Shown here piece after piece: positions 5,652-35,006 of a stretch of 64,000 nucleotides of DNA. Source of the DNA: Myxococcota bacterium (GTDB taxonomy: Bacteria; Myxococcota_A; UBA9160; UBA6930); contig OZ245002.1 of NCBI GenBank assembly GCA_965223415.1, forward strand, positions 1,056,001-1,120,000. Reading direction: 5' to 3'. The position numbers were made by a program, and so were the translations under genes. The notes under the pieces are model-generated. The model saw nothing but the letters and a program-made list of their open reading frames with translations. It was not told the origin of the DNA and did not search any database. The stretch's first letter is position 1. Every line of letters starts with the position of its first letter.

Positions 5652-5731
5652 GCTTCTTCGCCGATCCCGCGCGCTTGGTTGCTCCAGCCTCCCCCGTTCG
5701 CTTTCCTGTCGGTCGTTCCAGGAAGGGAGAC

Positions 5732-7114: not shown

Positions 7115-7128
7115 CGGCACGGTGCGTC

Positions 7129-9432: not shown

Positions 9433-9780
9433 ATGCAGCTGTTGTGGGGCGACCTCCACGTCCACAGCTCGTTCGGCTTCGATGCGAACTCGGCGGGCAA
9501 TCTCCGCCTTGAGCCCGCGGCTGCTTGACGTTTCGCGCGCGGCGATGCCGTGGTCGCGAACAGCGGCATGACGGCACGGCTCGAGCAGCCGCTCGACTTC
9601 CTGGTCGTGCCTGATCACCCGGAGTAGTTGGGTCGTCTGCCTGCGGTGCGGTGCGACGACCCGGCGGCCCTCGCCGACCCGGACGCACTTCGACTTCGCG
9701 ATGAACGGAAGGATCCGCTGGGAGGGGGGGGTCGGCATCGTCGCGACGCTGGGCGACCGCATCTCACCGCTTGGTGTTGT
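9433..9780 (+). pseudogene. DUF3604-like (PHP-fold) protein remnant
   Basis: Reads LLWGDLHVHSSFGFDA..AA*RFARG..PLDFLVVPDHPE*LG, with in-frame stops at 9526 and 9625, and is truncated. Confidence 0.7.
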
Positions 9781-9815
9781 GTATCGACTCCGGTCGGGTC
9801 TTCGTTCGCTCGAGC

Positions 9816-10727: not shown

Positions 10728-10839
10728 GGTCTGATCCCTCCATTTCCGGGTTTCTTGACGCTTTCCGGACGACTCTAGACGGCGCGATTGCCCTGATCAT
10801 CACTTGATTGCGTGAGTGATAATCCGGAAACTCCGGATA

Positions 10840-11840: not shown

Positions 11841-12647
11841 TCAGCGGACGCGGGTTCGGCGGCGGCTTCGGCGCTGGGGATTGGCGGGGGTGTGGGTCGG
11901 CATTTCGCCGGGGCGCTGTTGCTTGCGGTAGCTCTCGCCCTCGATGACGAGCTGGTAGGCGTTGTGGGCGAGGCGGTCGAGGGCGCTCTGGGCCAGGATG
12001 GGGTCGTCGAAGAGGGGGATCCATTCCTCGATGGCGCGGTTGCTGGTGACGATCGTCGAAGCGCGGCGGTGGCGTTCGAGGACGACCTCGTAGAGATCGC
12101 TCGACTGCTCGGCGGAGAGGCGCCGGAGGCCGAAGTCGTCGAGGACGAGGAGGTCCGGGGCGAGGAGGCGTCGGAAGACCTTCTCGGTCGAGAGGTCGGC
12201 TCGCGACTGGTGGAGCCAGTGGAACATGCGGTCGACGCGGAGGAAGAGGACGTGGTGCCCGGCCCGGCAGGCGGCGTGTCCCAGGGCGGAGGCCAGGAAG
12301 GTCTTGCCCACGCCCACGGGGCCGAGCAGGATGACGTCCTCGTGGCGCTCGAGGAAGCCGAGGGAGAAGAGGTCCTTCACGCGATCGCGATCGAAGGTGA
12401 CGGGGGCATCCCAGTCGAAGGCCTCGAGGGTCTGCTCTTCCTCGAAGCCGGCGCGGGAAAGGCGCGTCTCGAGGTTCTTGTGGTCGCGGCGATCGACTTC
12501 GTCCTGAAGGACGAGCTCCAGGAGGTCGAGCTCAGGGAGCTTCGTCTTCCGGGTGTAGGCCACGCGATCGGGGAGCGTGGCCAGCATGCCCGAGAGCTTC
12601 AGGCGTTTGAGCAGGGTCTTGAGGGACGGGTTGATCTCGGTCGTCAT
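11841..12647 (-). CDS. istB: IS21 helper ATPase IstB
   Basis: Walker A GPVGVGKT, LLVLDDFG, TSNR and DRL motifs. Confidence 0.93.
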   Translation of the reverse strand: MTTEINPSLKTLLKRLKLSGMLATLPDRVAYTRKTKLPELDLLELVLQDEVDRRDHKNLETRLSRAGFEEEQTLEAFDWDAPVTFDRDRVKDLFSLGFLERHEDVILLGPVGVGKTFLASALGHAACRAGHHVLFLRVDRMFHWLHQSRADLSTEKVFRRLLAPDLLVLDDFGLRRLSAEQSSDLYEVVLERHRRASTIVTSNRAIEEWIPLFDDPILAQSALDRLAHNAYQLVIEGESYRKQQRPGEMPTHTPANPQRRSRRRTRVR

Positions 12648-14244: not shown

Positions 14245-14619
14245 CTGCCTGCGCCTCCTCTGGCGCCGCAGAATGGCCTGGGTCGGCCACGGGACCGGCC
14301 TCCTCCTGAGCCCCCCCCATCTGGGGTGGGTCATGCTCGTGAGAAAACCGCGGTCAGGCCTGGGTCATGCCCGTGAGAAAAGGTGAGTCATGCCCGTGAG
14401 AAATGACACGCCCATTGCCGCCGGCCGCGCCTCCATCGCGCGACTTCAAAGCGGTGACGCGGACTGACCCCTGCTGGCAGTGCAGGGGAGTGCACCGGGG
14501 TGCAGAGAACGGTCGTCTGGAAGGCACCAGGTCCGCGGACGGCACTGGACGGCGCCTCCGAGGGAGAAGAAGTCCTGCCCACGTTCGCCGAGCCCTATGT
14601 GGTAGTGACGAACCCAGGC

Positions 14620-19782: not shown

Positions 19783-20062
19783 CTCAATTCACCCGTTCGA
19801 ATCGCCGGTCAGGGACGAGCCAAGCCAACGCGACCACGACATGGACCATGAACGCGAGAACCGGCGCGAGAAACGAGGCCCCGACGCCAAGCACATGGGC
19901 TCCCACAGATGCTGCACCTTTCCTAGACGAAGCTCAACGCGTAGCTGCCAAGAGCCGGCAACACGGGCAGAAGTGCGGCGGGGGTTGGCTCGTGAGGTAC
20001 TTTCAGTTCCAGCACCATGATCGCACCCCATCGCTGAAGGCCTCGAGGCGATTCGTACTCAC
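19783..20062 (-). pseudogene. TMEM175/DUF1211 potassium channel remnant
   Basis: Minus strand reads NRLEAFSDGV..IMVLELKVPH..SYALSFV* and ..WLVPDRRFERV; frameshifted, with the middle deleted. Confidence 0.7.
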
Positions 20063-20670
20063 GAGTCCTGGACCTCCGGCAAGCCGCCCCAGGCGCGAAG
20101 GATCGTCCCCGTCATCGTTCCGTTGATCGCCTCGATGTAGAATGCAGCGGTCTGCTCCGCAGTGACGAGGCCCTCTCTCTCTCGTCCGGGCTCAACCACC
20201 GGAGCAGGAGACACGACGTTGAGACGGATACCCCGAGGCAGAAGCGGCGCGGTGTTTGAAACGAAGGTGTCCACAGCGGCATTGAGGGGACCCGTTCCGA
20301 TGCTGTTCGGGTTCGCGTAGTGCGAGAGAAACCCGCTGGTCAGCACGAAGACCCCATCGTCTCGGATTGTTGTCGTTCCCGAACGAACCAGTCGCACTTG
20401 GGCGAGGAACTTTCGCTCGAACCCGTAGCGGAAGTCGTCGTCTTCCAGGGTCTCATACGGGCCGAAGGTGCTGTCCGATCCAGCAGCGGCAACCAAGGCG
20501 TCGAAATCACCCAAGGCCTGGAGCATCTCGGCCACCGACTCGGGGTTGGTGTAGTCGCACCGGATGTCCCCGCTCCTCGAGCCGATTCGCACAACGTCAT
20601 GCCGGCCCGAGAGCTGGTTGTCGACGGCACGTCCGATCTTTCCTGATGCTCCAACGATCGCAATCTTCAC
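20059..20670 (-). CDS. Short-chain dehydrogenase/reductase
   Basis: Motifs IVGASGKIG and IRLNVVSP. Confidence 0.88.
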   Translation of the reverse strand: MKIAIVGASGKIGRAVDNQLSGRHDVVRIGSRSGDIRCDYTNPESVAEMLQALGDFDALVAAAGSDSTFGPYETLEDDDFRYGFERKFLAQVRLVRSGTTTIRDDGVFVLTSGFLSHYANPNSIGTGPLNAAVDTFVSNTAPLLPRGIRLNVVSPAPVVEPGREREGLVTAEQTAAFYIEAINGTMTGTILRAWGGLPEVQDS

Positions 20671-20766
20671 GGCCTACTCCGCCTCTGTTTCTGGGAACCT
20701 GTTGCCATCGGCTGCGACGACGCGAGTCATTCGGGATCACTCGGCTCGCTGGTCGGCAGCGCGCCT

Positions 20767-21330
20767 CTAGTCGCTGCCAATCTGTCGATTCCAGTCAGCG
20801 TTGTCCCAGAAGAGGTATTCCTCTGCGATGCGACCCTCCTCCCAGCGCGCAATCGTCGCAATCTTGATGCGGACTGGTTTCCCCGTGGGCTCACGAACCG
20901 TCCCGTCGGGAAGCGTGAGGGGCTTGATCCATCTCCCCTCCGAGATGCTGATTCCGGCGGTCCACTCGCCGAATCCAAAGCCGACGATGTGCTCGGAGAC
21001 CTTGAAGTCGAACGTGTCGAAGAGGAACTGAAGCTCTTTGCTGTGAGGCTCGTAGGGTGAGGTCTTCGTCCCGTCAGCGTTGTGGACGATGACGTTGTCC
21101 GCATGAATCTCGGAGATTCGTTTCAGATCTCGGCTGTTGAAGGCCTCGAGGTCGAGCTCGTCGAAGGTTCTGAGATGCGCGGCGGTCTGAGCCCGCTCCG
21201 CGTTGTGGGCGTCGACCTGAGCCTGAAGCGCGGCCACCTTGGCTCTGAGTTCGCTGATCTCGCTATCCGCGGCTGCGGGGCTGCAGGCAAGCGCCAAGAT
21301 CGCGGTCGCAGCGAGGATGGTGGTTCGCAT
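20767..21330 (-). CDS. Secreted SnoaL/ester cyclase (NTF2-like) protein
   Basis: Signal peptide plus PTGK and GRIAEEYLFWD motifs. Confidence 0.8.
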   Translation of the reverse strand: MRTTILAATAILALACSPAAADSEISELRAKVAALQAQVDAHNAERAQTAAHLRTFDELDLEAFNSRDLKRISEIHADNVIVHNADGTKTSPYEPHSKELQFLFDTFDFKVSEHIVGFGFGEWTAGISISEGRWIKPLTLPDGTVREPTGKPVRIKIATIARWEEGRIAEEYLFWDNADWNRQIGSD

Positions 21331-21446
21331 GATGGTCTCCCTTTGGTTGTTGGATTCCCCGAGCACGCCGAACAACCTATGATGTGCTCAATATCGGCAC
21401 AATGGGACTATTGTAGTTTCACTATCCCGAATTCTGGAACAATGAG

Positions 21447-22373
21447 ATGGACGTTCTCAAAGGAATGACGGTCTTCGTGGCCGTGGCGAAGCAGGGGAGT
21501 TTTGCGGCAGCCGCTCGCGAGCTGCAGCTATCTCGATCCGCGGTCAGCCGGCTCGTCCTCGACCTCGAGGAGTGGCTCGGGGCACCGCTGTTCAACCGGA
21601 CGACACGCGCCCTGTCCCTAACGGATGCTGGGCGTACGCATCTCGAGCGCTGCGAACTCCTGGTGGCCGAAGCCGATGACATTAGGAAACACGCAACCGA
21701 GCAACGCTCCGAAGCGCAAGGCCCACTCCGAATCACCGCGCCGCTGTTCGTCGCCCGGTATTTCCTGCAAGACTTACTTCCCGCATATCTGAAGATGTTT
21801 CCAAAGGTCGAGCTTGACCTGGTCGCCGTCGACAGAATGGTCGACATCATCGCCGAGGGTTTCGACATCGCGATCCGGGCCGGGGTTGTTCCGGACTCGT
21901 CGCTCATTTCAAGGCGCCTGATGGATGCGCGCCTCCTCCTCGTGGCATCACCGGACTACCTGAAGCGATGGGGAAGACCTGAGTCCCCGACCGACCTCGC
22001 CAACCACAACTGCATCGTCGACACCGTCGCTGGGTACGCCAACCGCTGGCCCGTCGGAGGTGCGAAGTCGACGAAATCCGTGCCCGTTCATGGGAACGTG
22101 AAGGTCAATAGCGGTGAGATCGCGCGGAACCTTGCGCTCGCGGACGTCGGTATCACGCTCCTCCCAGAGTTCATGGTTGCCGCCGAAGTCCGAGAAGGCC
22201 GCTTGGTCTCCTTGCTCGACGATCTCGTTCGATTCGAGGGAGCTCTGTTCGCCCTATATCCTCACCGCCGGAGTCAGTCGCCGAGCGTCCGGACCTTCAT
22301 TGACCACGCGGTGGCCCACGTGACCCAGCTCGAGCGCCGCCGCGGTGAGATCGGAACTAGCGAGTCCACGTAG
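21447..22373 (+). CDS. LysR family transcriptional regulator
   Basis: HTH with LFNRTTRALSLT; divergent from the SnoaL/SDR genes. Confidence 0.92.
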   Translation: MDVLKGMTVFVAVAKQGSFAAAARELQLSRSAVSRLVLDLEEWLGAPLFNRTTRALSLTDAGRTHLERCELLVAEADDIRKHATEQRSEAQGPLRITAPLFVARYFLQDLLPAYLKMFPKVELDLVAVDRMVDIIAEGFDIAIRAGVVPDSSLISRRLMDARLLLVASPDYLKRWGRPESPTDLANHNCIVDTVAGYANRWPVGGAKSTKSVPVHGNVKVNSGEIARNLALADVGITLLPEFMVAAEVREGRLVSLLDDLVRFEGALFALYPHRRSQSPSVRTFIDHAVAHVTQLERRRGEIGTSEST

Positions 22374-22570
22374 GGCGCCGATTCGAACCGAGGAGACCAC
22401 TGCACGCTCACTTCGATGCGGGGCGACGTGGTGCCTGTCGAGGGACGTCATCTCTTGCGCGCTAAGAGGACGGCTAGTTTTGCGCACCCCCCTGGGTTGA
22501 TGTTCGGTTCTTCCTTCTTCTCTTCCGCTCTCCGAAGGAGAGCACGGCCGTCAGGCCGCCCTCTGGGGCC

Positions 22571-23371
22571 TCAACGCTGGGCGCTTTGCCCCGCGGCCTG
22601 CTCGAGCTCGCGGAGCCGGTAGCTCCGCCCCGAGATGTTGAGCACCTGGCTGTGGTGGAGGAGGCGATCGAGGATGGCGGTGGCCAGCACCTCGTCGCCC
22701 GCCAGCACCTCGGGCCAGTCGGCGATGCCCTTGTTCGTGGTGATCAGGATCGAGCCCCTCCCATAGCGGTAGGAGACGAGCCGGAAGAAGAGGCTCGCCT
22801 CCTGGCGCGTCATGGGCTCGAAGCCGACCTCGTCGATGACGAGGAGCGCCACGTTCATGTGCTTGCGCCGCCGCAGCCGTTGCGGGCTGATCTCGGCGTC
22901 GCGCTTGAGGGCCGCCAGCAGGTCCTCGAGGCGATGGAAGGCCACGGAGAAGCCGTTCTCCACGGCCCGCACCCCCAGGGCCACCGCCAGGTGGGTCTTG
23001 CCCACTCCCGGCGGACCCTGGATCAGCAGACTCTCCTTGGCCCGGATCCACGCGCAGGTGCCCAGCGTCTCGATCCGGCTCCGCTCCACACTCGGCTGGA
23101 AGGCGAAGTCGAAGTTGCCGAGGGTCTGCCCCGTGGGAAGGCCCGAGAGACGGAGCGAGGTCTTCATCCTCCGCTCCTCGCGGTGCTGCAGCTCGGCCTC
23201 GAGCAGCAGGTCGAGGAAGCGGTGGGGCACGAGGTCGTCCTTGGTCGCTCGGGCCAGCTCCTCGCCGATGTGCTCGGCCGCGTGATGGAGGCCGAGGCGC
23301 ACGAGCCGCTCGCGGGTCGGGTCGAGATCCACCTTGCCGCCCTTCTTGGGCACCGGGTTTCCCGCCGTCAT
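22571..23371 (-). CDS. istB: IS21 helper ATPase IstB
   Basis: Motifs GPPGVGKT, LLVIDEVG and AILDRLLHH. Confidence 0.93.
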   Translation of the reverse strand: MTAGNPVPKKGGKVDLDPTRERLVRLGLHHAAEHIGEELARATKDDLVPHRFLDLLLEAELQHREERRMKTSLRLSGLPTGQTLGNFDFAFQPSVERSRIETLGTCAWIRAKESLLIQGPPGVGKTHLAVALGVRAVENGFSVAFHRLEDLLAALKRDAEISPQRLRRRKHMNVALLVIDEVGFEPMTRQEASLFFRLVSYRYGRGSILITTNKGIADWPEVLAGDEVLATAILDRLLHHSQVLNISGRSYRLRELEQAAGQSAQR

Positions 23372-24654
23372 CGCGCCACCTCCGCCAGATCGGCATAGAG
23401 GTCGATCGGCCGCTGCTCCGGCTCCATCGCCCACAGCTCCTGGAGGCGTCGACCCATGCGCCCGAGCGGTACGGGCGCCTCCACCCCCTCCGTGCTCGGC
23501 CCCTCGTAGTGGCTCGGGTCCAGCAGCAGGCGGCTTCGCGTGTGGCGCGGGTGCGCGGCCACCACCGAGCCCTCGGCCCAGACCTGCACCTGCCGGGCGC
23601 AGCCGCGCACCTCGACGCTCTGCTCGACGAAGCGGAAGGGGACGCTGTAGGTACGCCCCTCGAAGCGCACCGTGGCGTCGCGCCCGACACGTCGCATCAC
23701 GGCCAGGTCGAAGGGCTCGGGAAGCCGCTCGGGCAGGGCCCCGAGATGGGGCTTCTCCGCCTCCCACGCCTGGAAGACCGTCGTGCCCGTCGCCGGGCAC
23801 TGCCGCCGGTGGCTCGAGCGCGCCACCTGGCCGTCCGTCCACGCTTGCAGCGACTCCAGGCTCTCGTGCTCCCGCCGACGCGGATCGAAGCCCCGCCGGT
23901 GCCCCAGGATCCGACGCTCCACCTTCCCCTTCTCCTGCGGCTGGCGGGGACGGGTGGCGTCCACGTGGAAGCGAAGGGCCCCGGCATAGCTCGCGTAAGC
24001 CGGGTTCACCGTCCCCCATGGCCCCGCCCCCTTCGCCACCGCTGTCTTCACGTTGTCGACCCGCAGCACCGCCGGCACCCCGCCCAGCCGCTCGAAGGCC
24101 CGGTTGTGCACGTCCAGCCACGCCAGCGTGTCCGCCCGCTCCGACCACACCACCGCTTCTCGCCGCGAGTGCGAGAGCACCAGGTGGAAGGCATGCAGGT
24201 CCACCTCCTGGCCCCCGATCCGCACGCCCGGAAACTCGCCCCAGTCCACCTGACCCTGCGCCCCGGGCGGTGTCTCCACCCGACGCCGGCTCCGCACCTT
24301 CGGTCTCGGGAACCGGGCCCGCACGTACCGCTGCACGCTCTTGGAGCTCCCCGTGTACCCGTGCTCCTCCACCAGGAACTCGTGAAGCTCCTGCAGGTTC
24401 ACGCCACGGCCTCCCGAGCTCGCCTCCAGCCACTCCGCGATCACCTCGTGGACCGCCTCGGCCAGGAAGGGCTTCCCGCTCCGGCCGTCTCGCGCCCCCT
24501 CCGCCAGCCGCTTCAGCCGGTAGCGCACCGCGCTCTCCCGGATCCCCAGCTGGCGGGCGATCTCCCGGTTCGAGCACCCCCGCTCGTGCAGCACTTCGAT
24601 CGTCATCACTTCCTCCTGCCTCAGTCGCCGCTGCCCCACGCCCCCCTCCCTCAC
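23368..24654 (-). CDS. istA: IS21 transposase IstA
   Basis: Motifs QGQVDWG, RVDNVKT and EKGKVER. Confidence 0.93.
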   Translation of the reverse strand: MREGGVGQRRLRQEEVMTIEVLHERGCSNREIARQLGIRESAVRYRLKRLAEGARDGRSGKPFLAEAVHEVIAEWLEASSGGRGVNLQELHEFLVEEHGYTGSSKSVQRYVRARFPRPKVRSRRRVETPPGAQGQVDWGEFPGVRIGGQEVDLHAFHLVLSHSRREAVVWSERADTLAWLDVHNRAFERLGGVPAVLRVDNVKTAVAKGAGPWGTVNPAYASYAGALRFHVDATRPRQPQEKGKVERRILGHRRGFDPRRREHESLESLQAWTDGQVARSSHRRQCPATGTTVFQAWEAEKPHLGALPERLPEPFDLAVMRRVGRDATVRFEGRTYSVPFRFVEQSVEVRGCARQVQVWAEGSVVAAHPRHTRSRLLLDPSHYEGPSTEGVEAPVPLGRMGRRLQELWAMEPEQRPIDLYADLAEVAR

Positions 24655-24737
24655 GGGGAACGTGCCGCGCAGCGGCTCAACAGGAGGTGCGCAAATCTAC
24701 GTGTCCTCTTAGCCCTCGAATATCACGTCCTGCGACA

Positions 24738-24843
24738 AAAGATGAGCGACGGTCCCATACTCGAGCGAGATGTAGAGCACACCCTCGTCGAGAGACTGCG
24801 GGATCTCGGTCACGAACGCATGCGAGATCTGCTCTACTCGCAC
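24738..24843 (-). pseudogene. DUF6527-like protein, 5' half (interrupted by IS21)
   Basis: GTG 24843 gives MRVEQISHAFVTEIPQSLDEGVLYISLEYGTVAHL, then the IS end. The start overlaps the ThiF gene end. Confidence 0.82.
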
Positions 24844-26015
24844 TCCTCGTCCTCGCTGACCAGGAGATTCACGTCGAGCGTATACGTCGTCGAGTGTTCG
24901 CGTTCCAGGTCTCGGTAGAACCCGAGGAGCTTCTTCCAGCGAATCACCGCCATCGCTGCGTTCAGGGCGTTCAGCTCGGCGATCTGGATGTTGCTTCGGT
25001 AGGCGTCATCCTCGACTGCAGCATCCAACGAGACCCGCTTTCGGAAGTGCTCTCGTTTTGCTGGCGTGCTCGTCGTCGTGCGGACGACACCTCCCAGCTG
25101 GCCTTCATCGAGCTCGAGGCCAATGCCGACGTCGACGAAGGCGATTTCCTGGTCCTCGAGGTAGGCCACGATCGGTGCCTTTGCAGCGCCATCGTCGATA
25201 CAGAGGAAGACGAAGTCCACACCTGCCAGCTCACCCACGTTCGACTGATCGAGCGCGATCTCGTGGGGCACTATGCGACGGTGCATGCTCGAGTAGAGGC
25301 GGTGATGGTGCGTCACCTTGGCCGGGCCCTCCCGCAGGGTCTCTAGCGATGGAGCACCTGGCGCTCGGAATGCGTTGTGGGTGAAAAAGCGGTCGGGATC
25401 GAAAATGTGAATCTCCCTAACCGGGGTCTTCGCCGCGAAGTCGAGTACGTACGCCCCGCTCCCGCCGACGCCGACGATGGCGATCCGCTGCCGCTCCAGC
25501 TTGCTCGTCACCTCGACGATCCCAGCCCGGGCGGACGCCGTTTCGGGGTAGCGAAACGGCGACTCCGCGGGGGCCTCGCTCGGACGGAACGTCTTGGGTG
25601 TGGCCGTTCGGTCGAGTGAGGCGGCCGGGCCCGAGAGGATGGTTGCATAGGTATCGAACTTCGCGAAGTAGTCCGGGTACCCGCCCGGAGGCTTGTTGGA
25701 GAAAGAGTGTCTCGCAACCAAGTCGTCGGCGATCGTCGTGCTTGCCCGACCGTGCTCGATCCCGGTGATCGGCTTGCCGGAGGCATGACACGGATGATGC
25801 TCTCCCGTGAACATCATCACGTGCGTGCTCGGTCTACCTGTTCGATCTCCGCTAAGTGTGAGCTCTGAGACGAGGGCGCCGCGTGCGACTGTCCGGTCCC
25901 GGGTCACGTACGGCACGTTGTCGACAACGATGTGGCCCGATCGGATCGAGACCTCATAGCCCTCGTCAACGAGGCGCTGCAGATCAGGGCTAAGACTTAT
26001 CAGTGCGTGTGACAT
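24834..26015 (-). CDS. ThiF/E1-like adenylyltransferase with N-terminal E2-like (DUF6791-like) domain
   Basis: Motifs IAIVGVGGSG, IFDPD, HNAFR and FLCID; the N-terminal domain carries a GEHHPC cysteine. Confidence 0.85.
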   Translation of the reverse strand: MSHALISLSPDLQRLVDEGYEVSIRSGHIVVDNVPYVTRDRTVARGALVSELTLSGDRTGRPSTHVMMFTGEHHPCHASGKPITGIEHGRASTTIADDLVARHSFSNKPPGGYPDYFAKFDTYATILSGPAASLDRTATPKTFRPSEAPAESPFRYPETASARAGIVEVTSKLERQRIAIVGVGGSGAYVLDFAAKTPVREIHIFDPDRFFTHNAFRAPGAPSLETLREGPAKVTHHHRLYSSMHRRIVPHEIALDQSNVGELAGVDFVFLCIDDGAAKAPIVAYLEDQEIAFVDVGIGLELDEGQLGGVVRTTTSTPAKREHFRKRVSLDAAVEDDAYRSNIQIAELNALNAAMAVIRWKKLLGFYRDLEREHSTTYTLDVNLLVSEDEECE

Positions 26016-26253
26016 TGAAGATCATTCCGTCCTTGACCTTCACAGCCTCGCCCTCCACGAGCGTCCCTTCGCGCTTGCCACCCGGGCCGCGCTTGAAGGT
26101 GACGGTGAAGCAGATGAAGCCGCCCTGGGTCTGCCCCGGGAAGGCGATGTCGACGACCTCGGCGAACGTCAGCTCCTCCTTCTTGGGCAGCTGGTGACGC
26201 CGTCCGTTGACGATGATGGTCACGGTCTTCTCGCAGTCGCTGTGCTTGTTCAT
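25990..26253 (-). CDS. Multiubiquitin-domain (beta-grasp) ubiquitin-like protein
   Basis: TIIVNGR..ELTFAEVVDIAF..TVTFKRG..GTLVEGEAVKVKDGMIFNVTRTDKS; RBS AAGGAG before ATG 26253. Confidence 0.82.
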   Translation of the reverse strand: MNKHSDCEKTVTIIVNGRRHQLPKKEELTFAEVVDIAFPGQTQGGFICFTVTFKRGPGGKREGTLVEGEAVKVKDGMIFNVTRTDKS

Positions 26254-26297
26254 TTCCGGCTCTCCTTTATGATCCTGCGCTCCATGAGCGCGTGCAT

Positions 26298-26325
26298 GCG
26301 TGTCAGCGTGCATGCGGACACTTTA
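26298..26325 (-). promoter_or_regulatory. Candidate operator and -10 box upstream of the Ubl operon
   Basis: Imperfect palindrome TGTCAGCGTGCATGCGGACA (26301-26320) next to a minus-strand TAAAGT; 13/15 identical to 27458-27472. Confidence 0.45.
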
Positions 26326-26346
26326 GCGAAGAAAGGACGCGGCCGC

Positions 26347-27075
26347 CTAGAGACGAGCCTGCCCCCGGGGGGAGGCGCATGCCAGGCCCTGGAGTCGGAT
26401 GCTTGCGGCCTGCTTTGACACTGTGAAGCGCCGCGCGACCTCTTCGACCAGCTTCTTGAGCCCCTCCGAATCCGGCTCGAGGGGCAGGGACAAGGTGAGC
26501 CGCTCGGACTCTTGCTCGACCACGGTCAGCATTGTGGGCTTCGGCATCAGCAAGGAGCCGATCGCCTTGTTCGCCTGGACCTCCCGCCAGTCGCTGCCGC
26601 CGCTGTAGCCGACGTCGCGCTTCAGGCACCGCATCAGCTGGGGTGTGTTCGGGCGGTGCCCCGTCTCCGAGCTGTTGAACAAGCCGCGCTGCATCTCATC
26701 GAGCTCGTAGAGAATGCGGTGCAGCAGCGCGTGGCCGATCTCGTGTGCCACGGTCGCGCGCCACCGTCCTTTCGTTCCGCCGGTAGCGTCGTCGGCATCG
26801 AAGGCCCCCGTAAGATCGCGGTTGATCTCGATGCGCGGCGGCTTGCCAGAGCAGAAGTGGGTCACGCCGAGCACGTCGGGATCGAGATCCGCGTGCTGGT
26901 CAAAGGGGAAGCGCAGATGGCGTTCGATCAGCCGCTCCAGATCGACCGTCACGTCGTTGGAGTTGGGGTCCGGCATGAGGCTCGCCTTGTCGAGCTCATC
27001 GACCATGATCTGGTCGATCTCGGAGGGCTCGTACCAGAGCTTCCGCTCCCTGCCGGGGGCTCTGTACTCTCTCAT
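26347..27075 (-). CDS. ImmA/IrrE-like Zn metallopeptidase (CapP-like)
   Basis: RWRATVAHEIGH (HExxH) and WREVQAN...LLMP; overlaps the HTH gene (ATGA). Confidence 0.85.
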   Translation of the reverse strand: MREYRAPGRERKLWYEPSEIDQIMVDELDKASLMPDPNSNDVTVDLERLIERHLRFPFDQHADLDPDVLGVTHFCSGKPPRIEINRDLTGAFDADDATGGTKGRWRATVAHEIGHALLHRILYELDEMQRGLFNSSETGHRPNTPQLMRCLKRDVGYSGGSDWREVQANKAIGSLLMPKPTMLTVVEQESERLTLSLPLEPDSEGLKKLVEEVARRFTVSKQAASIRLQGLACASPRGQARL

Positions 27076-27440
27076 TTCGACTTCTTCTCTCTATCCCTCG
27101 CGAGCTGTTCGACTTTCTTCTCGAGCTTTCCGAGCTCTTCTGGTGACAACTTGCTCTCGGAGACCTTGCGAAACAGAGTTACGGCCTGCGGGACGTTTTC
27201 CACGTACTTCTCGGTTACCTCGTAGACCTTGCCTGCTTGCACCATTAGATCATCGAAATCGAGGCGTAGGTGCTTCGCCAAGGAGCGGAGCAACTCCTCA
27301 GATGGCACGCGGCGATCGTTTTCGATGTCACTTAGGTGTGTCGGAGAGATGCTGAGCAACTTGGCCAGCTCCCGTAGACCGTAGTCGGTCGTCTCGACGC
27401 GCGCGGTGTGTAGGCGAGCGCCTAAACTTGCTTTCGGCAC
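27072..27440 (-). CDS. XRE/Cro-CI HTH regulator (CapH/ImmR-like)
   Basis: LRELAKLLSISPTHLSDIENDRRVPS. Confidence 0.9.
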   Translation of the reverse strand: MPKASLGARLHTARVETTDYGLRELAKLLSISPTHLSDIENDRRVPSEELLRSLAKHLRLDFDDLMVQAGKVYEVTEKYVENVPQAVTLFRKVSESKLSPEELGKLEKKVEQLARDREKKSK

Positions 27441-27605
27441 TGGGACCTCTTTCGTTCGCTTGTCAGCGTACAGGTGCTCGCTCAGGGTTGCAACGAACGG
27501 GCCTGGGGGCCCCAGTTCGGCTGGGCAATCTCAGCCGCAACTTCGGCGAGGCCGCCGCGACCACTGGTCTCCCCTGGGGGAATCGAGTGAGTTACGTATC
27601 CTTAC

Positions 27606-28274
27606 GTGGCTTTGGCCTACACCAAGCGAATAGTCTGTTTGGCGAAATCGAAGAAGCTGGGCGCCACTTGCGTCGCGGGGCTTGAGTGGAACGGAACTGC
27701 TCGAGGCGAGTGGATCCGGCCGGTGGGAGACCGGCCTTCCGAGGCGATCGTGGACGAGGAGATGGACTTCGAGGGTGGCGGGCAGGCTTCGCTCCTCGAC
27801 GTCGTCGAGATCGACTTCCTTGAACATCGGCCGCACGCTTGCCAGACCGAGAATCACCTGATCACCGACGATCATTGGTGGAGAAAGGTGGGTGAGCTGA
27901 GCCCGCGGAAGCTACGGCGACTCGCCGACCAGCCGCCAGACCTCTGGGGAACGGACAACCACGGCTATATCCGGGATCGAATTCCAATCGCGGAAGCAGA
28001 CGCTCTACCGTCATCGCTGCTGCTTGTTCGGCTCGAGTCGCCAAGCGTCGAGGTGCGACGATGGCCTGAGCGGACCACTGTGCGCGTGGACTTCGACTAC
28101 AACGGCGTTCACTACAATATGGCGGTGACGGATCGGGCCTTCAAGAAGCGTTTCGTAGCAAAGGGTGCCGGTGACTACCCCCTCGCGACCGAGACGTATG
28201 CCTGTCTCTCATTGGGTGAACCGAACGACGGGTACCGCTTCAAGCTGGCGGCCGCCGTTTTCGAGTTGGACTAA
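27606..28274 (+). CDS. Dual OB-fold domain protein
   Basis: KRIVCLAKSKK...CVAG, WIRPV, HACQTEN and CLSLGEP match the dual-OB family pattern seen next to DUF488/DarTG genes. Confidence 0.7.
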   Translation: MALAYTKRIVCLAKSKKLGATCVAGLEWNGTARGEWIRPVGDRPSEAIVDEEMDFEGGGQASLLDVVEIDFLEHRPHACQTENHLITDDHWWRKVGELSPRKLRRLADQPPDLWGTDNHGYIRDRIPIAEADALPSSLLLVRLESPSVEVRRWPERTTVRVDFDYNGVHYNMAVTDRAFKKRFVAKGAGDYPLATETYACLSLGEPNDGYRFKLAAAVFELD

Positions 28275-28279
28275 CGGCG

Positions 28280-28906
28280 ATGCCGAGAGATTTGTTCACG
28301 ATTGGCCACTCCTCGCACCCGTTGCCCACCTTCCTAGGGCTTCTGAAGGAACATGGCATTGAGGTGGTGTGTGATGTGCGCTCAAGTCCCTACAGCGGCC
28401 GAAATCCCCAATTCAATCGCGATGCGCTCCAGAAGGACTTGGCAGCACGGTTCGTGAAGTACGTATTTCTTGGCAATGAACTCGGAGCTCGCAGCGAAGA
28501 CCCAAGCTGTTACGTCGATGGTCAGGCTCGCTACGAGCGAATCGCCAAGACGGCGATCTTCCAGTCGGGTCTCGAGAGAGTGCTCAAGGGTGTCGAGTCC
28601 TTCCGAGTCGCACTGATGTGCGCAGAGGCTGATCCGCTCACCTGTCACCGCACGATCTTGGTTTGCCGGGAGTTGAGAAACTCACGCCTCTCGATTGCGC
28701 ATGTTCTCTCCAATGGAAAGCTCGAATCCCACGCAGACGCTGAAGACCGGTTGCTCCGCATGACCAAGCTTGAAAACGGCGACTTGTTCCGCGGGCGTTC
28801 TGAGCTTCTCGACGAGGCCTACGGTGTTCAGGGGAGAAAGATTGCCTATAGGCGTCCTACGGACGGGACGAGAGCCTCTCACCCGCGCTCCGAGGTGCTC
28901 CGGTGA
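28280..28906 (+). CDS. DUF488 family protein
   Basis: Motifs FTIGHS, DVRSSPYS, ELGAR and LMCAE..CHR. Confidence 0.88.
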   Translation: MPRDLFTIGHSSHPLPTFLGLLKEHGIEVVCDVRSSPYSGRNPQFNRDALQKDLAARFVKYVFLGNELGARSEDPSCYVDGQARYERIAKTAIFQSGLERVLKGVESFRVALMCAEADPLTCHRTILVCRELRNSRLSIAHVLSNGKLESHADAEDRLLRMTKLENGDLFRGRSELLDEAYGVQGRKIAYRRPTDGTRASHPRSEVLR

Positions 28907-29343
28907 AGGTGTTCTCGATCGGGTTCACGAAGACGACGGCAGAGAGGTTCTTCGGGCGGCTCGCCGATGCGGGTGTTCGTAGAGTGATTGACGTCAGGCT
29001 CAACAACAGGTCCCAGCTCGCGGGCTTCGCGAAGCGAGACGACCTCAAGTTCTTTCTGATGGCCTTGGGCGACATCCAGTACGTCCACGAACCGATGCTC
29101 GCTCCTACGCAGGACATCCTGGACGCGCTCAAGAAGCACAAGGGTCAATGGGAAGACTATGAGCGGGCGTTTCTTGCGCTGATGCGTGAGCGGCGGATTG
29201 AAGAGAAGCTAGAAGCGAGTCTATTCGACCGCGCGTGCCTTCTTTGCAGCGAGGACCAGCCGCACCACTGCCATCGCCGGCTCGTTCTTGAATACCTTGC
29301 TGAGGCGTGGCCTGAAGCCGACCTGGAAGTGCTCCACCTCTAG
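28903..29343 (+). CDS. DUF488 family protein (second, shorter type)
   Basis: Motifs FSIGFT, DVRLNNRSQLAGFAK and LLCSE..CHRRL. Confidence 0.88.
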   Translation: MKVFSIGFTKTTAERFFGRLADAGVRRVIDVRLNNRSQLAGFAKRDDLKFFLMALGDIQYVHEPMLAPTQDILDALKKHKGQWEDYERAFLALMRERRIEEKLEASLFDRACLLCSEDQPHHCHRRLVLEYLAEAWPEADLEVLHL

Positions 29344-29425
29344 GTGCTCTTGTTCGGCACGCCGGCGCGGACCTTCTCTCCGTGCGCCAATCGGGACGCG
29401 GGTCTACCTCTGTTGGACGCATCAA

Positions 29426-29760
29426 GTGGGTGAGCCGAAGCTGCACCACTACGTGCCCCGCTTCTATCTTCGGCGGTTCGCTGATCCCTCGGGACGTCTG
29501 TGGCTATGGGACCGACATGAGGACCGCATCTTCGCCGCTAGTCCAAACAACGTCGCAGCAGAAAGGCACTTCTATCGTCTAACAGAATTGGTTCAGCAAG
29601 GTCTCGACCCGCTCACGATGGAGAAACAGTTCTCCGATCTCGAGGGCGAGGTTGCGCGAATCTCGAATCAGTGGTTGGACTGGCTGCGGCACATGGAGCC
29701 GAGAGAGAAGATCGAGATCCCCTCAGCGAATCGGGAAATCCTCTCGCTGTACATCGCCCT
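29426..29760 (+). pseudogene. DUF4238-like protein truncated by an IS
   Basis: HHYVPRFYLRRF..AERHFY..EKQFSDLE, ending at an IS21-type end. Confidence 0.75.
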
Positions 29761-30604
29761 CGGTGATCACCTCAAAGCCGGCCATATGTGAACGTCTCAA
29801 AGCCGGCCATAGGTGACTGCCCAGGAGGTGTTCTTCTACCGCGCCGCGGGCTCCTTCTGCAAGGCCGTTCCCTTTCGTGTGCGCCAGCTCCGGGGTCCGC
29901 ATTTGAGGATGTGTCCGTGGTGGAGGAGTCGATCGAGCATCGCGGTCACGGCCGCCGTGTCGCCGAGGAGGCGGCCCCAGTCGTCCACGGGCCGGTTCGA
30001 GGTGACGAGGGTGCTGGCGCGCTCGTAGCGGCGCATGATGAGCTCGAGGAGATCCTCGGCGGCCGTGGTGGGGAGCTTTCTCATGCCGAGGTCGTCGAGG
30101 AGGAGCAGCGGCACGCTGGCCATCTCGGTGAGGTAGCTCTTGCGCTCGCCGTCGAGCGTGGCATCGGCGAGCTCTTCGAGCAGCACGTGCACCTCGCGGT
30201 AGGCGGCGCGGTGGCCCTGGTGGATCGCAGCGAGGCCAATGGCCTGGGCCAGGTGGCTCTTGCCGCTGCCCGGCGGGCCAAGAAGGACCGCGTCCTCCGC
30301 GCGCGTGACGAAGCGTCCGGTGGCGAGCTCGAAGACGAGGGCGCGATCGATCTTCGGGTTGAAGGCGAAGTCGAAGCCGTCGAGGGTCTTGTGGGCATCG
30401 CGGAAGCGGGCCTGTTTGATGCGGCGCGCGAGCAGGCGATCCTGGCGCCGCTGGAGCTCGTCCTGGACCAGGGCGGAGAGGAGATCGATCGGGGGCCACT
30501 GGCTCTTCTGGGCCTCGAGCAGACGCATCTCCAGATGCTCGGCCATGCCCGAGAGGCGAAGCTTGCGGAGCGCCGGGTCGAGCTCGGTCATCTTCACGAG
30601 GGGT
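29760..30604 (-). mobile_element. Truncated third IS21-type element (one end plus istB only)
   Basis: The end carries tandem TCAAAGCCGGCCATA motifs; istA is missing where IS copy 2 begins. Confidence 0.8.
29836..30591 (-). CDS. istB: IS21 helper ATPase IstB (orphan)
   Basis: Motifs GPPGSGKS, LLLLDDLG and AMLDRLLHH. Confidence 0.88.
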   Translation of the reverse strand: MTELDPALRKLRLSGMAEHLEMRLLEAQKSQWPPIDLLSALVQDELQRRQDRLLARRIKQARFRDAHKTLDGFDFAFNPKIDRALVFELATGRFVTRAEDAVLLGPPGSGKSHLAQAIGLAAIHQGHRAAYREVHVLLEELADATLDGERKSYLTEMASVPLLLLDDLGMRKLPTTAAEDLLELIMRRYERASTLVTSNRPVDDWGRLLGDTAAVTAMLDRLLHHGHILKCGPRSWRTRKGTALQKEPAAR

Positions 30605-30687
30605 TGTCGCAGGACGTGATATTCGAGGGCTAAGAGGACACGTAGATTTGCGCACCTCCTGTTGAGCCGCTGCGCGGCACGTTCCCC

Positions 30688-31974
30688 GTGAGGGAGGGGG
30701 GCGTGGGGCAGCGGCGACTGAGGCAGGAGGAAGTGATGACGATCGAAGTGCTGCACGAGCGGGGGTGCTCGAACCGGGAGATCGCCCGCCAGCTGGGGAT
30801 CCGGGAGAGCGCGGTGCGCTACCGGCTGAAGCGGCTGGCGGAGGGGGCGCGAGACGGCCGGAGCGGGAAGCCCTTCCTGGCCGAGGCGGTCCACGAGGTG
30901 ATCGCGGAGTGGCTGGAGGCGAGCTCGGGAGGCCGTGGCGTGAACCTGCAGGAGCTTCACGAGTTCCTGGTGGAGGAGCACGGGTACACGGGGAGCTCCA
31001 AGAGCGTGCAGCGGTACGTGCGGGCCCGGTTCCCGAGACCGAAGGTGCGGAGCCGGCGTCGGGTGGAGACACCGCCCGGGGCGCAGGGTCAGGTGGACTG
31101 GGGCGAGTTTCCGGGCGTGCGGATCGGGGGCCAGGAGGTGGACCTGCATGCCTTCCACCTGGTGCTCTCGCACTCGCGGCGAGAAGCGGTGGTGTGGTCG
31201 GAGCGGGCGGACACGCTGGCGTGGCTGGACGTGCACAACCGGGCCTTCGAGCGGCTGGGCGGGGTGCCGGCGGTGCTGCGGGTCGACAACGTGAAGACAG
31301 CGGTGGCGAAGGGGGCGGGGCCATGGGGGACGGTGAACCCGGCTTACGCGAGCTATGCCGGGGCCCTTCGCTTCCACGTGGACGCCACCCGTCCCCGCCA
31401 GCCGCAGGAGAAGGGGAAGGTGGAGCGTCGGATCCTGGGGCACCGGCGGGGCTTCGATCCGCGTCGGCGGGAGCACGAGAGCCTGGAGTCGCTGCAAGCG
31501 TGGACGGACGGCCAGGTGGCGCGCTCGAGCCACCGGCGGCAGTGCCCGGCGACGGGCACGACGGTCTTCCAGGCGTGGGAGGCGGAGAAGCCCCATCTCG
31601 GGGCCCTGCCCGAGCGGCTTCCCGAGCCCTTCGACCTGGCCGTGATGCGACGTGTCGGGCGCGACGCCACGGTGCGCTTCGAGGGGCGTACCTACAGCGT
31701 CCCCTTCCGCTTCGTCGAGCAGAGCGTCGAGGTGCGCGGCTGCGCCCGGCAGGTGCAGGTCTGGGCCGAGGGCTCGGTGGTGGCCGCGCACCCGCGCCAC
31801 ACGCGAAGCCGCCTGCTGCTGGACCCGAGCCACTACGAGGGGCCGAGCACGGAGGGGGTGGAGGCGCCCGTACCGCTCGGGCGCATGGGTCGACGCCTCC
31901 AGGAGCTGTGGGCGATGGAGCCGGAGCAGCGGCCGATCGACCTCTATGCCGATCTGGCGGAGGTGGCGCGATGA
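30688..31974 (+). CDS. istA: IS21 transposase IstA
   Basis: Translation identical to 23368-24654. Confidence 0.93.
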   Translation: MREGGVGQRRLRQEEVMTIEVLHERGCSNREIARQLGIRESAVRYRLKRLAEGARDGRSGKPFLAEAVHEVIAEWLEASSGGRGVNLQELHEFLVEEHGYTGSSKSVQRYVRARFPRPKVRSRRRVETPPGAQGQVDWGEFPGVRIGGQEVDLHAFHLVLSHSRREAVVWSERADTLAWLDVHNRAFERLGGVPAVLRVDNVKTAVAKGAGPWGTVNPAYASYAGALRFHVDATRPRQPQEKGKVERRILGHRRGFDPRRREHESLESLQAWTDGQVARSSHRRQCPATGTTVFQAWEAEKPHLGALPERLPEPFDLAVMRRVGRDATVRFEGRTYSVPFRFVEQSVEVRGCARQVQVWAEGSVVAAHPRHTRSRLLLDPSHYEGPSTEGVEAPVPLGRMGRRLQELWAMEPEQRPIDLYADLAEVAR

Positions 31975-32771
31975 CGGCGGGAAACCCGGTGCCCAAGAAG
32001 GGCGGCAAGGTGGATCTCGACCCGACCCGCGAGCGGCTCGTGCGCCTCGGCCTCCATCACGCGGCCGAGCACATCGGCGAGGAGCTGGCCCGAGCGACCA
32101 AGGACGACCTCGTGCCCCACCGCTTCCTCGACCTGCTGCTCGAGGCCGAGCTGCAGCACCGCGAGGAGCGGAGGATGAAGACCTCGCTCCGTCTCTCGGG
32201 CCTTCCCACGGGGCAGACCCTCGGCAACTTCGACTTCGCCTTCCAGCCGAGTGTGGAGCGGAGCCGGATCGAGACGCTGGGCACCTGCGCGTGGATCCGG
32301 GCCAAGGAGAGTCTGCTGATCCAGGGTCCGCCGGGAGTGGGCAAGACCCACCTGGCGGTGGCCCTGGGGGTGCGGGCCGTGGAGAACGGCTTCTCCGTGG
32401 CCTTCCATCGCCTCGAGGACCTGCTGGCGGCCCTCAAGCGCGACGCCGAGATCAGCCCGCAACGGCTGCGGCGGCGCAAGCACATGAACGTGGCGCTCCT
32501 CGTCATCGACGAGGTCGGCTTCGAGCCCATGACGCGCCAGGAGGCGAGCCTCTTCTTCCGGCTCGTCTCCTACCGCTATGGGAGGGGCTCGATCCTGATC
32601 ACCACGAACAAGGGCATCGCCGACTGGCCCGAGGTGCTGGCGGGCGACGAGGTGCTGGCCACCGCCATCCTCGATCGCCTCCTCCACCACAGCCAGGTGC
32701 TCAACATCTCGGGGCGGAGCTACCGGCTCCGCGAGCTCGAGCAGGCCGCGGGGCAAAGCGCCCAGCGTTGA
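31971..32771 (+). CDS. istB: IS21 helper ATPase IstB
   Basis: Translation identical to 22571-23371. Confidence 0.93.
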   Translation: MTAGNPVPKKGGKVDLDPTRERLVRLGLHHAAEHIGEELARATKDDLVPHRFLDLLLEAELQHREERRMKTSLRLSGLPTGQTLGNFDFAFQPSVERSRIETLGTCAWIRAKESLLIQGPPGVGKTHLAVALGVRAVENGFSVAFHRLEDLLAALKRDAEISPQRLRRRKHMNVALLVIDEVGFEPMTRQEASLFFRLVSYRYGRGSILITTNKGIADWPEVLAGDEVLATAILDRLLHHSQVLNISGRSYRLRELEQAAGQSAQR

Positions 32772-32906
32772 GGCCCCAGAGGGCGGCCTGACGGCCGTGC
32801 TCTCCTTCGGAGAGCGGAAGAGAAGAAGGAAGAACCGAACATCAACCCAGGGGGGTGCGCAAAACTAGCCGTCCTCTTAGCGCGCAAGAGATGACGTCCC
32901 TCGACA

Positions 32907-33177
32907 TCTTTGTTGCTGCGGGTGCGGCAACGAGGTCACTACGCCCCTAACGCCAGTCGACTGGAGCTTGATCTACGACGGGGAGACCGTTTCCCTCGAT
33001 CCTTCGATCGGTAGCTGGGGGCTTGCGTGTCGATCTCACTACTGGATCACGCGGGGCCGCGTGCGATGGGCTCCCGCGTGGTCAGAGGAAGAGATCGCCG
33101 AGAATCGCGAACGAGACCGTGCTGAGAAGCGGCGGTTCTTCGGAGGTCGAGGCGGCTGGCTCAACCGAGACTCCTAG
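32907..33177 (+). pseudogene. DUF6527-like protein, 3' half
   Basis: LCCCGCGNEVTTPLTPVDWSLIYDGETVSLDPSIGSWGLACRSHYWI...; joins in frame to 24843-24738 after one TCTTT is removed. Confidence 0.85.
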
Positions 33178-33249
33178 TCCGTGAAGGGAATCTCCCGGGC
33201 AGCTTGCCCGTAAGCCACTCGTCTTCACCAGAGCAGGCTGAGAGGGCGG

Positions 33250-34287
33250 CTAGCGGGCCTTCCCCAGAACGAAGTCCTGGAGCACGCGCCTCGATAGCTG
33301 ATCAGCCTTGGCTTTGGTTAGCCCGGAGGAGGAAAGAGCGGTCACGCGTCGAAGGGCCTTCTTTGAAGCCCCCTTTCGGACGTCTACGCTCCACTTCCCG
33401 TCAGGCTGCAGTGATCGTGTCACGCGGTAGACCTTCTTGTTCCACCCACAGGTCCACTCAGTACCGTTCTGACGTGTCGTCTCGGACCAGTTCTTCTCGA
33501 TCGCCACCTGCTCAAGCGCGTGACGCATCTGTTCAGCACTCTGGAAGCGCTTTTTCGGGTCGACGCCAATAGCCTTGTTGATGACCATACGGAGTGGCCG
33601 CGGAACGAAGTCCCGGTAGTAACTGCGATTCGGGAACTTCCCCTGAAGGGCGAGTGTCCGAGCCTGGAGCGGTGCGATTGCGGGAAGTAGCGAATCGCCG
33701 TTGACCAGGCGGTAGAGCGTAACTCCACACGCATAGATGTCGGTCAGTTCGTTGTAATCGTTCGGCCCTGCTACCTCCGGGGCAAGATGGAGCGTGTATG
33801 CATAGTCCTTTACACCGAGCGCCTTGAGGTTCAACCCGGTCGTGATCGCCAGGCCGAAGTCCGACAACTTGCCCTCGTTGGACTTACCCACGAGGATGTT
33901 GGCGGGCTTGATGTCACGATGAATGACACCCTTCGAGTGGGCGTACTCGAGGCCGCGAAGCACATCGATGATCATCCGCTTCGCCCTGGTCAGAGGGACG
34001 TACGAACCCTTCGCCTCGTCTTCCAGGCTCCCCTTGGGCAGGTACTCCATGGCCACGTACAGGCGACCATCACTCATCTTCCCGGTCTCGTGGACACGGA
34101 CGATATTCGGGTGCTCGACTGACTTCAGCAGTTGGGCTTCGTGGAAGAAGTTCTGAGGATTGAGCACCTTGTCCGGCGGAATGAGCTTGAGAGCGCGTTC
34201 AGCGTCTAGTCCGGTATCGGTGACCAACCAGACTTCGCCGAAGTTCCCGGAGCCCAGTCGCTGACGAAAGTCGAAGCCCGCCGCCAT
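33250..34287 (-). CDS. Hanks-type Ser/Thr protein kinase with small C-terminal domain
   Basis: Motifs LGSGNFG, ALK, HRDIKPAN, DFG and APE; no TM segment. Confidence 0.92.
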   Translation of the reverse strand: MAAGFDFRQRLGSGNFGEVWLVTDTGLDAERALKLIPPDKVLNPQNFFHEAQLLKSVEHPNIVRVHETGKMSDGRLYVAMEYLPKGSLEDEAKGSYVPLTRAKRMIIDVLRGLEYAHSKGVIHRDIKPANILVGKSNEGKLSDFGLAITTGLNLKALGVKDYAYTLHLAPEVAGPNDYNELTDIYACGVTLYRLVNGDSLLPAIAPLQARTLALQGKFPNRSYYRDFVPRPLRMVINKAIGVDPKKRFQSAEQMRHALEQVAIEKNWSETTRQNGTEWTCGWNKKVYRVTRSLQPDGKWSVDVRKGASKKALRRVTALSSSGLTKAKADQLSRRVLQDFVLGKAR

Positions 34288-34742
34288 CAGCCCAGTTCGC
34301 TCCACGCGGCCTGTAGCGCCTCCCGCTGCTTGTCGCTGAGGTCCGCGTACCCGGGGAAATGAGAGGTATCCAGTGTCGCCAGATAGCGGGCGCGGCCCTT
34401 CTTGCCCAAGTCCTTAGCGATTGTGCTCTTGACCTTCTTGAAAACGGCTGTCATGCCCTTCGACGCGGCAGCCAGCATCACGGCTGCTTCGTGCTCGACG
34501 CGGGTCTCGAACGTCGCGCCGCGAGTCCTACCTTCGAATCGCTTGATGACGACCTTGTCGATTGCGTGCTTCTCGAGCAGATCCGAGACTTCCTGATTCA
34601 GCCAGTGCAGGCTTTGCGCGGCCTTGAAGCCCTTGGGGAAGGGGAGGGTCTTGAGCTCCACCTGCTGGGGAGCGCCCTTCGTGCCATCGAGCACCGCGTA
34701 CGCGAAGTCCTTGTTGCTGCACCGAACGCCAAGAATGGGCAA
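34287..34742 (-). CDS. Hypothetical protein, possible RNase H-like (RuvC/YqgF-type) fold
   Basis: ILGVR..FAYAVL strand pair and DKVVIK; translationally coupled to the kinase (TGATG). Confidence 0.5.
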   Translation of the reverse strand: MPILGVRCSNKDFAYAVLDGTKGAPQQVELKTLPFPKGFKAAQSLHWLNQEVSDLLEKHAIDKVVIKRFEGRTRGATFETRVEHEAAVMLAAASKGMTAVFKKVKSTIAKDLGKKGRARYLATLDTSHFPGYADLSDKQREALQAAWSELG

Positions 34743-34929
34743 CTTAACCTCCCCAAGGGAACGGCCCCGCCGAGCTGGAATGGCCGCGTCAGCGCGGGCC
34801 TCGTTCCTTGCTCGGCCGGTCAGGCGGCGAAGGGACTCGCGTTCTTACCTGACCATAGTCGCGCTGGATTACGGCCCTCCTCCTGCTTACCCCGTGCTTA
34901 CCTGGCGATATCCCGAATCCCGTAAGTCC

Positions 34930-35006
34930 TGGCGCCCCGGGGAGGACTCGAACCCCCGACCCGCTGCTTAGAAGGCAGCCGCTCTATCCGACTGAGCTAC
35001 CGGGGC
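34930..35006 (-). tRNA. tRNA-Arg(TCT)
   Basis: GCCCCGG acceptor stem, anticodon arm GCTGC-CTTCTAA-GCAGC, GTTCGA T-loop and encoded CCA. Confidence 0.95.

Follow-up and report, generated by a model that had tools for sequence, protein, structure and literature searches.

Type II Bub operons (formerly 6E.2 or DUF6527 operons) encode a ubiquitin-like protein, BubA, an E2-E1 fusion protein, BubBD, and a protease, BubE, and typically have no JAB peptidase (bioRxiv 10.1101/2024.11.21.623953). According to the same source, the pair CapH and CapP accompanies 168 of 544 Bub operons. BubE is described there as a serine protease that has a Ser-His dyad together with a C4 zinc site, cleaves a fusion of BubA with green fluorescent protein and, when co-expressed, strips BubA-target conjugates. 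For E. coli BubA and BubBD, the same source reports conjugation in vitro in the absence of BubE. Numerous members of IS21, a family of insertion sequences (IS), yield a 5-bp target duplication (PMC11208146; PMC10122671). Inversions flanked by the family member IS100 are documented (PMC1940323), and a replicative copy-out/paste-in pathway has been proposed for IS21 (PMC11208146). Here we describe a locus of a Myxococcota bacterium (GenBank assembly GCA_965223415.1, contig OZ245002.1, positions 1,056,001 to 1,120,000; the whole stretch of 64,000 nucleotides is called the window, and all positions given below are positions in it) in which both subjects meet: an IS21-family element, here designated IS-X, has inserted into the bubE gene of a Type II Bub operon, and the 5867-bp segment between two inverted copies of the element has been inverted.

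The N-terminal piece of bubE (DUF6527) comprises 35 codons plus one base on the minus strand (24739-24843), starts with GTG at 24843 and stops at IS-X with ...CAT CTT T. The C-terminal piece, on the plus strand (32911-33177), comprises 88 codons and a stop codon (33175-33177), is assigned to DUF6527 by Pfam (1e-22) and spans positions 7-63 of the 63 positions of that profile. The initial annotation had read codons 1-35 as ending in TCTTT at copy 1 of the IS and the rest of the gene as following TCTTT at copy 2, and the junctions read exactly so. When the pieces are joined with one TCTTT removed, a join of 372 nt with an open frame of 123 codons results, the clean 123-aa reading frame that had been announced; when both copies of TCTTT are kept in the join, the frame is lost.

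Of 704 candidate proteins of 48-154 aa, 703 were matched by the C-terminal piece at E <= 1e-5, and the 120 best-scoring of these homologues all carry PF20137. On 10 intact homologues the 35-aa and the 88-aa piece tile without gap or overlap: the former corresponds to residues 1-35, and the latter begins in the next column, at the conserved CCCGCG. In addition, 35 genomic loci were fetched with the E2-E1 protein (BubBD) as query. A whole bubE homologue lies directly downstream of bubBD and on the same strand in all 35, and the matches to the N- and C-terminal pieces abut to the base in 31 of them; in the remaining loci (L018, L021, L028 and L034) the short N-terminal piece scored below the threshold. 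The tiling and the abutting matches bear out the claim that the two pieces are one gene, bubE, split by IS-X.

Regarding the junctions, the left side reads GTGCC, IS-X copy 1 and AAAGA, after which the start of bubE appears in reverse complement, and the right side reads GGGGT, IS-X copy 2 and TCTTT, after which comes the rest of bubE. TCTTT (32907-32911), at the right inverted repeat (IRR) end of copy 2, is the 5-bp target duplication, and AAAGA (24738-24742), at the left inverted repeat (IRL) end of copy 1, is its reverse complement. The segment between the copies measures 5867 bp. Flipping 24738-30604 in silico places TCTTT as direct repeats on either side of copy 2, as the initial annotation had expected of this check, and together with the junctions and the canonical gene order in relatives it upholds the inversion of the segment between the inverted copies. 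The 64 kb (68.6% G+C) contain 10 occurrences of TCTTT and 8 of AAAGA, i.e., about 2e-4 per site. A chance origin of the arrangement is rejected in view of the identical repeats, the rare 5-mer, the exact reading frame and the tiling of the pieces on homologues.

No such agreement exists at the other ends. For the other junction pair, GTGCC versus ACCCC, a comparison at lengths from 4 to 8 revealed no duplication, and the outer flanks, GTGCC and TCTTT, differ, i.e., there is no target duplication around the whole unit of IS, cargo and IS. Insertion of a composite transposon as one unit is rejected on the latter ground. The description of the pair as composite-transposon-like therefore holds for the layout, but there is no sign that the unit ever moved. 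A replicon fusion (cointegrate) mediated by IS21 is likewise rejected; it would be expected to leave direct copies, and the copies of IS-X are inverted. Nor is the locus a reversible switch that restores bubE: after the in-silico flip, IS-X still lies inside the gene in the other orientation.

The two copies of IS-X are the sole repeat of at least 60 nt in the window. A base-for-base check by script gave inverted arms of 2303 nt each (22436-24738 and 30604-32906) that are 100% complementary, with 5865 nt between them. The size of 2303 bp first given for the element has to be corrected. As read at the junctions, IS-X proper has 2302 bp and the ends TGTCG...CGACA; the 2303rd base lies outside IS-X and matches by coincidence, since it is the first A of AAAGA. 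Copy 1 (22436-24737, minus strand) is a complete IS21-family element with its IRL end at 24737 and its IRR end at 22436, and the identical copy 2 (30605-32906, plus strand) has its IRL end at 30605 and its IRR end at 32906. The termini are imperfect inverted repeats of about 55 bp that both start with TGTCG and contain mismatches and small gaps.

The DDE transposase gene istA is located at 23368-24654 (minus strand) in copy 1 and at 30688-31974 (plus strand) in copy 2; the longest reading frame has 428 aa, the database version 412 aa. IstA scores 227.9 bits with NCBIfam NF033546 (IS21 family transposase; cut-off 160) and contains the Pfam domains rve, Mu-transpos_C_2 and a helix-turn-helix (HTH) domain. 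The gene of the AAA+ helper ATPase, istB, is located at 22571-23380 (minus strand) in copy 1 and at 31962-32771 (plus strand) in copy 2, and IstB matches Pfam IstB_IS21 (1.5e-71) and NCBIfam NF038214 (IS21-like element helper ATPase IstB; 250.1 bits, cut-off 200). In copy 1, istB begins at 23380 and istA runs to 23368, so that the two frames overlap. The order of istA and an overlapping istB, the TG...CA ends and the 5-bp target duplication are shared with IS21, IS5376 and IS100. Unlike the described IS21 members, IS-X has an IstA to which no other protein in a collection of 5.8 billion sequences is more than 77% identical: the nearest was found in a metagenome-assembled genome (MAG) of the Gemmatimonadales (77%), followed by Planctomycetota and Myxococcales MAGs (74%), and the cluster of IstA itself (P0121) is 100% identical and occurs on a single contig of 5,833,097 bp. 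A megablast comparison of IS-X with plasmid records gave no match. Because of this distance and the lack of a plasmid match, IS-X is, as far as its sequence allows it to be placed, a complete and previously undescribed IS21-family member. It is thus new as a member of a known family; rearrangements like this one are well known, and the locus offers nothing new in kind.

The inner end of copy 2 is adjoined by the remnant of a different IS21-family element, here designated IS-Y (29765-30604, minus strand), which consists of a right end, probably terminating at 29765, and a full istB. The istB of IS-Y (29836-30591, minus strand; Pfam IstB_IS21, 3.7e-62; NCBIfam NF038214, 254.5 bits) has its start codon 13 bp from the end of IS-X copy 2, and its product is weakly similar to the IstB of IS-X (1e-39). 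The right end of IS-Y contains a 16-nt motif twice, at 29771 and at 29796. No istA of IS-Y is present in the 64-kb window; apart from that of IS-X, the one istA-like gene there is part of a third, diverged element. Next to IS-Y lies a DUF4238 fragment (29426-29764, plus strand) that holds the first approximately 112 of an expected approximately 295 residues (Pfam positions 2-102 of 281). Five full-length DUF4238 homologues (294-318 aa), used out of 45 found, align over the first 112-113 residues only, to 29761, and with these five the remaining approximately 180 codons found no match at E < 0.1 in the window. The IS-Y remnant truncates the DUF4238 gene.

Regarding the origin of the arrangement, the route ranked first is an insertion followed by homologous recombination between the inverted copies, to which we assign a probability of roughly 0.5. 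By this route, IS-Y would first have struck the DUF4238 gene, and IS-X would next have entered at the very end of the istA of IS-Y, at one end of the low-G+C island described below. The left half of IS-Y and the remainder of DUF4238 would have been lost later, most simply via a deletion adjoining IS-X; the sequence does not show whether this loss preceded or followed the inversion. A second, identical copy of IS-X would have inserted in the opposite orientation at TCTTT in bubE, duplicating these 5 bp. Finally, homologous recombination between the 2.3-kb inverted copies would have flipped the intervening 5867 bp and thereby moved capH-capP-bubA-bubBD, the 35 codons of bubE, the PDC-M45-like cluster described below, the DUF4238 fragment and IS-Y to the opposite strand.

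Both this order of events and recombination as the agent are what we infer from the final structure. Perfect inverted repeats of 2.3 kb are good substrates for recombination. Recombination is ranked first because the repeats are long and perfect, because inversions at IS100 are known, and because copy-out/paste-in transposition gives simple insertions; since a simple insertion would thus come first, the flip would require recombination. Because the other junctions show no duplication and both the istA of IS-Y and the C-terminus of DUF4238 are gone, the left copy must have undergone at least one more deletion or rearrangement associated with an IS. The history of two events given in the initial annotation is too simple in these respects, including the truncation of DUF4238 by IS-Y.

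Several points weigh against insertion followed by recombination. The final structure equals the product of a one-step transposition, and no sequence feature favours two steps. The pair GTGCC/ACCCC, without a duplication, implies that the ancestral copy did not arise by simple insertion; to that extent the reconstruction of the history is partial. The uninverted ancestral state was not seen among the 35 loci, in which the best relative of BubBD reaches 70% (a partial match) and the rest 43-54%. The orientation of the segment rests on the assembly. Finally, early work suggested target immunity conferred by IstB (PMC11208146), which, if correct, would disfavour a second insertion at a distance of 5.9 kb from the copy already present.

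A one-step intramolecular transposition is a possible, if tentatively held, alternative. A pre-existing IS-X would have targeted TCTTT in bubE on its own chromosome, either by replicative transposition in trans or via the abutted ends of two IS21 elements in tandem, and a single event would have made the second copy, the inversion and the inverted duplication. By our own derivation, these two variants and insertion with subsequent recombination all give the same end product, and in all three the duplication ends up inverted, at the IRL of copy 1 and the IRR of copy 2; the initial annotation was right to allow for both recombination and intramolecular transposition, and sequence alone cannot separate them. 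The one-step route needs one event fewer and accords with copies that are 100% identical. IstA is reported to act on single and on tandem IS21 elements (PMC10122671), and the replicative pathway proposed for IS21 (cited above) also fits. Its layout is the signature published for in-trans transposition of IS26 and Tn4401, namely inverted copies, an inverted segment between them and an inverted target duplication, one copy per element (PMC4471558), a product that according to this source could in principle act as a composite transposon. The present locus differs in that IS-X belongs to another IS family, for which the replicative cointegrate route is not established, and in that the cases presented in that source have matching ancestral duplications at the other two junctions, whereas none is present here. 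Moreover, judged from its mechanism, copy-out/paste-in would give simple insertions and not inversions, and no IS21-family inversion by the one-step route was found in the literature covered, which did not extend to subscription journals. We consider it doubtful that the locus is a natural footprint of one-step transposition-inversion by an IS21-family element, a route undocumented for the family in the literature searched; the hit in bubE may have been non-neutral.

A longer history is unlikely. It would involve further copies of IS-X outside the window and several recombinations among at least three copies, the inversion being part of a larger reshuffling. The outer junction of the left copy and the inner junction of the right copy, which have no duplication in common, could be accounted for in this way, as could the fate of the istA of IS-Y and of the approximately 180 codons of DUF4238, which are nowhere in the 64 kb; the region is also rich in IS, with three different IS21-family elements in the window. 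Just two copies of IS-X are present in the window, however, and a deletion adjoining one of them explains the same facts more simply. Least likely of all is an assembly artefact, in which the insertion in bubE would be real, the segment between the repeats misoriented and the allele in the cell a simple insertion: identical 2.3-kb repeats are a situation in which assemblers can misorient a segment, but a chromosome-scale contig of 5,833,097 bp would be difficult to assemble from reads of no more than 2.3 kb, and any read spanning one copy of the IS would fix the orientation.

The operon to which bubE belongs is read from the start of the minus-strand genes as follows. The first gene (27072-27440, minus strand) encodes a capH-like HTH regulator (Pfam HTH_31 and HTH_3; PADLOC capH, 1.9e-13) and is followed by that of a capP-like regulator of the M78 peptidase type (26347-27075, minus strand; Pfam Peptidase_M78; PADLOC capP, 5.9e-10). 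The ubiquitin-like protein BubA (25990-26313, minus strand; 107 aa; Pfam Multi_ubiq, 4.9e-16) and the E2-E1 fusion BubBD (24834-26015, minus strand; Pfam DUF6791, 6.8e-55, and ThiF; NCBIfam NF004805, 522.5 bits, cut-off 352) both appear intact. No JAB domain was found among 43 open reading frames scanned between 17.3 and 38.6 kb. From its gene content, the operon is assigned to Type II Bub, with CapH, CapP, BubA, BubBD and BubE. It resembles the described operons in the order BubA-BubBD-BubE, in having no JAB peptidase and in having CapH and CapP ahead, and differs from them in that bubE is present as a disrupted member, cut by an IS into pieces of 35 and 88 codons that lie on opposite strands 8 kb apart.

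In BubBD the residues S106, R217 and Y339 and the motif GxGGxG (G182-G187) are kept and are invariant across an alignment of 33 sequences. The residues named for E. coli BubBD are S106, R219 and Y342 (bioRxiv 10.1101/2024.11.21.623953); judged from near-equal numbering rather than an alignment of the two proteins, S106, R217 and Y339 probably are the corresponding catalytic positions. A bubA-homologous gene lies upstream of bubBD in 33 of the 35 loci, the other two being cut by a contig end, and in the window as well as throughout these loci the two genes overlap by about 23-26 nt, bubA with its 3' end and bubBD with its start. BubA of the window and all 33 homologues end with a serine directly before the stop codon, preceded by K or R in 32. 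The Type II BubA proteins (window, L002-L033 and L035) end mostly in ...T-D-K-S, not in glycine; in the portion of the Bub papers' text examined, this C-terminal serine is not mentioned. Because BubA ends at the serine shared by its homologues, directly before the stop codon, it would need no processing, and a requirement of BubE for the maturation of BubA is not supported; the in-vitro conjugation by BubA and BubBD in the absence of BubE (cited above) also speaks against it.

The entry point of IS-X lies immediately ahead of the three N-terminal zinc cysteines (CxCxC) of BubE. Of the conserved residues, the C-terminal piece keeps all four cysteines, the Ser and the His. The N-terminal piece now reads 9 codons into IS-X and would give a product of 44 aa, and upstream of the C-terminal piece the frame meets a stop 10 codons within IS-X and has no usable start codon. 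Expression of the C-terminal piece alone is unlikely; its first in-frame starts, TTG at 32968 and GTG at 33061, follow the three cysteines. Because the N-terminal piece ends at 44 aa and the C-terminal piece has no start ahead of the cysteines, bubE is predicted to be dead in either orientation, neither piece being able to yield a folded protease.

For the operon as a whole, the initial annotation had concluded that the system was probably inactivated. This holds for bubE, which is broken either way, but goes beyond the evidence for BubA, BubBD, CapH and CapP, which are whole; according to the published data, BubE removes conjugates and does not make them. Because capH, capP, bubA and bubBD are together and look intact and bubE alone is broken, what the system has probably lost is its deconjugating protease and not conjugation. 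If so, the loss of the protease with BubA and BubBD intact could leave conjugation unrestrained. The strain would represent a natural bubE-null with bubA and bubBD intact that could be used to probe the role of BubE in a Type II system. For annotation, the two small orphan reading frames 8 kb apart on opposite strands are to be recorded as one pseudogene, bubE, and the Bub operon of this genome is to be scored as lacking the protease. The labelling of the inverted genes as defence cargo is reasonable but unproven.

One of the related loci carries an independent IS21-family element inside a Type II bubBD gene (L035; Arthrobacter sp. EPSL27, NZ_LNUT01000004.1, positions 5567-10654). Its IstB is encoded at 7352-8110 and its IstA at 8644-9840 of that record, with BubBD residues 1-178 before the element and residues 176-390 after it. 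This second, independent insertion hints that Bub operons are repeatedly knocked out by IS elements.

Apart from the Bub operon, the inverted segment contains three genes for DuOB and two DUF488 proteins (27606-29343, plus strand; Pfam), which are matched by each of the three PADLOC models for PDC-M45, a candidate defence system (PDC-M45A, 3.2e-65; PDC-M45B, 4.8e-80; PDC-M45C, 7.3e-69). This PDC-M45-like trio diverges from the Bub operon and was inverted along with it.

The G+C content is about 0.58-0.64 in 19.8-22.4, 24.7-29.8 and 33.0-34.6 kb and about 0.69-0.74 in IS-X and beyond 35 kb. A tRNA-Arg(TCT) gene (34930-35006, minus strand) has its 3' end facing the low-G+C stretch. The stretch from 19800 to 35006, broken by the high-G+C copies of the IS and ending at tRNA-Arg(TCT), thus has the layout of a genomic island. 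No integrase was found for the island, and no repeat of at least 12 nt resembling an attachment (att) site of the tRNA-Arg 3' end is present at its far side. The third, diverged IS21-family element is located at 11841-14334 (minus strand) and encodes IstB-like (11883-12671) and IstA-like (13006-14142) proteins. It is adjoined by genes for a protein of the metallo-beta-lactamase fold and a second LysR regulator (9816-10727 and 10816-11739); the fold is generic, and there is no sign of a resistance function. Taken with the truncated DUF4238 gene, the presence of three IS21-family elements suggests a defence-type island eroded by insertion sequences. Right after bubE, a Ser/Thr protein kinase gene (33250-34305, minus strand) matches the PADLOC models mad6 (1.2e-57) and PD-T4-6 (6.3e-54) and may be another defence gene of the island.

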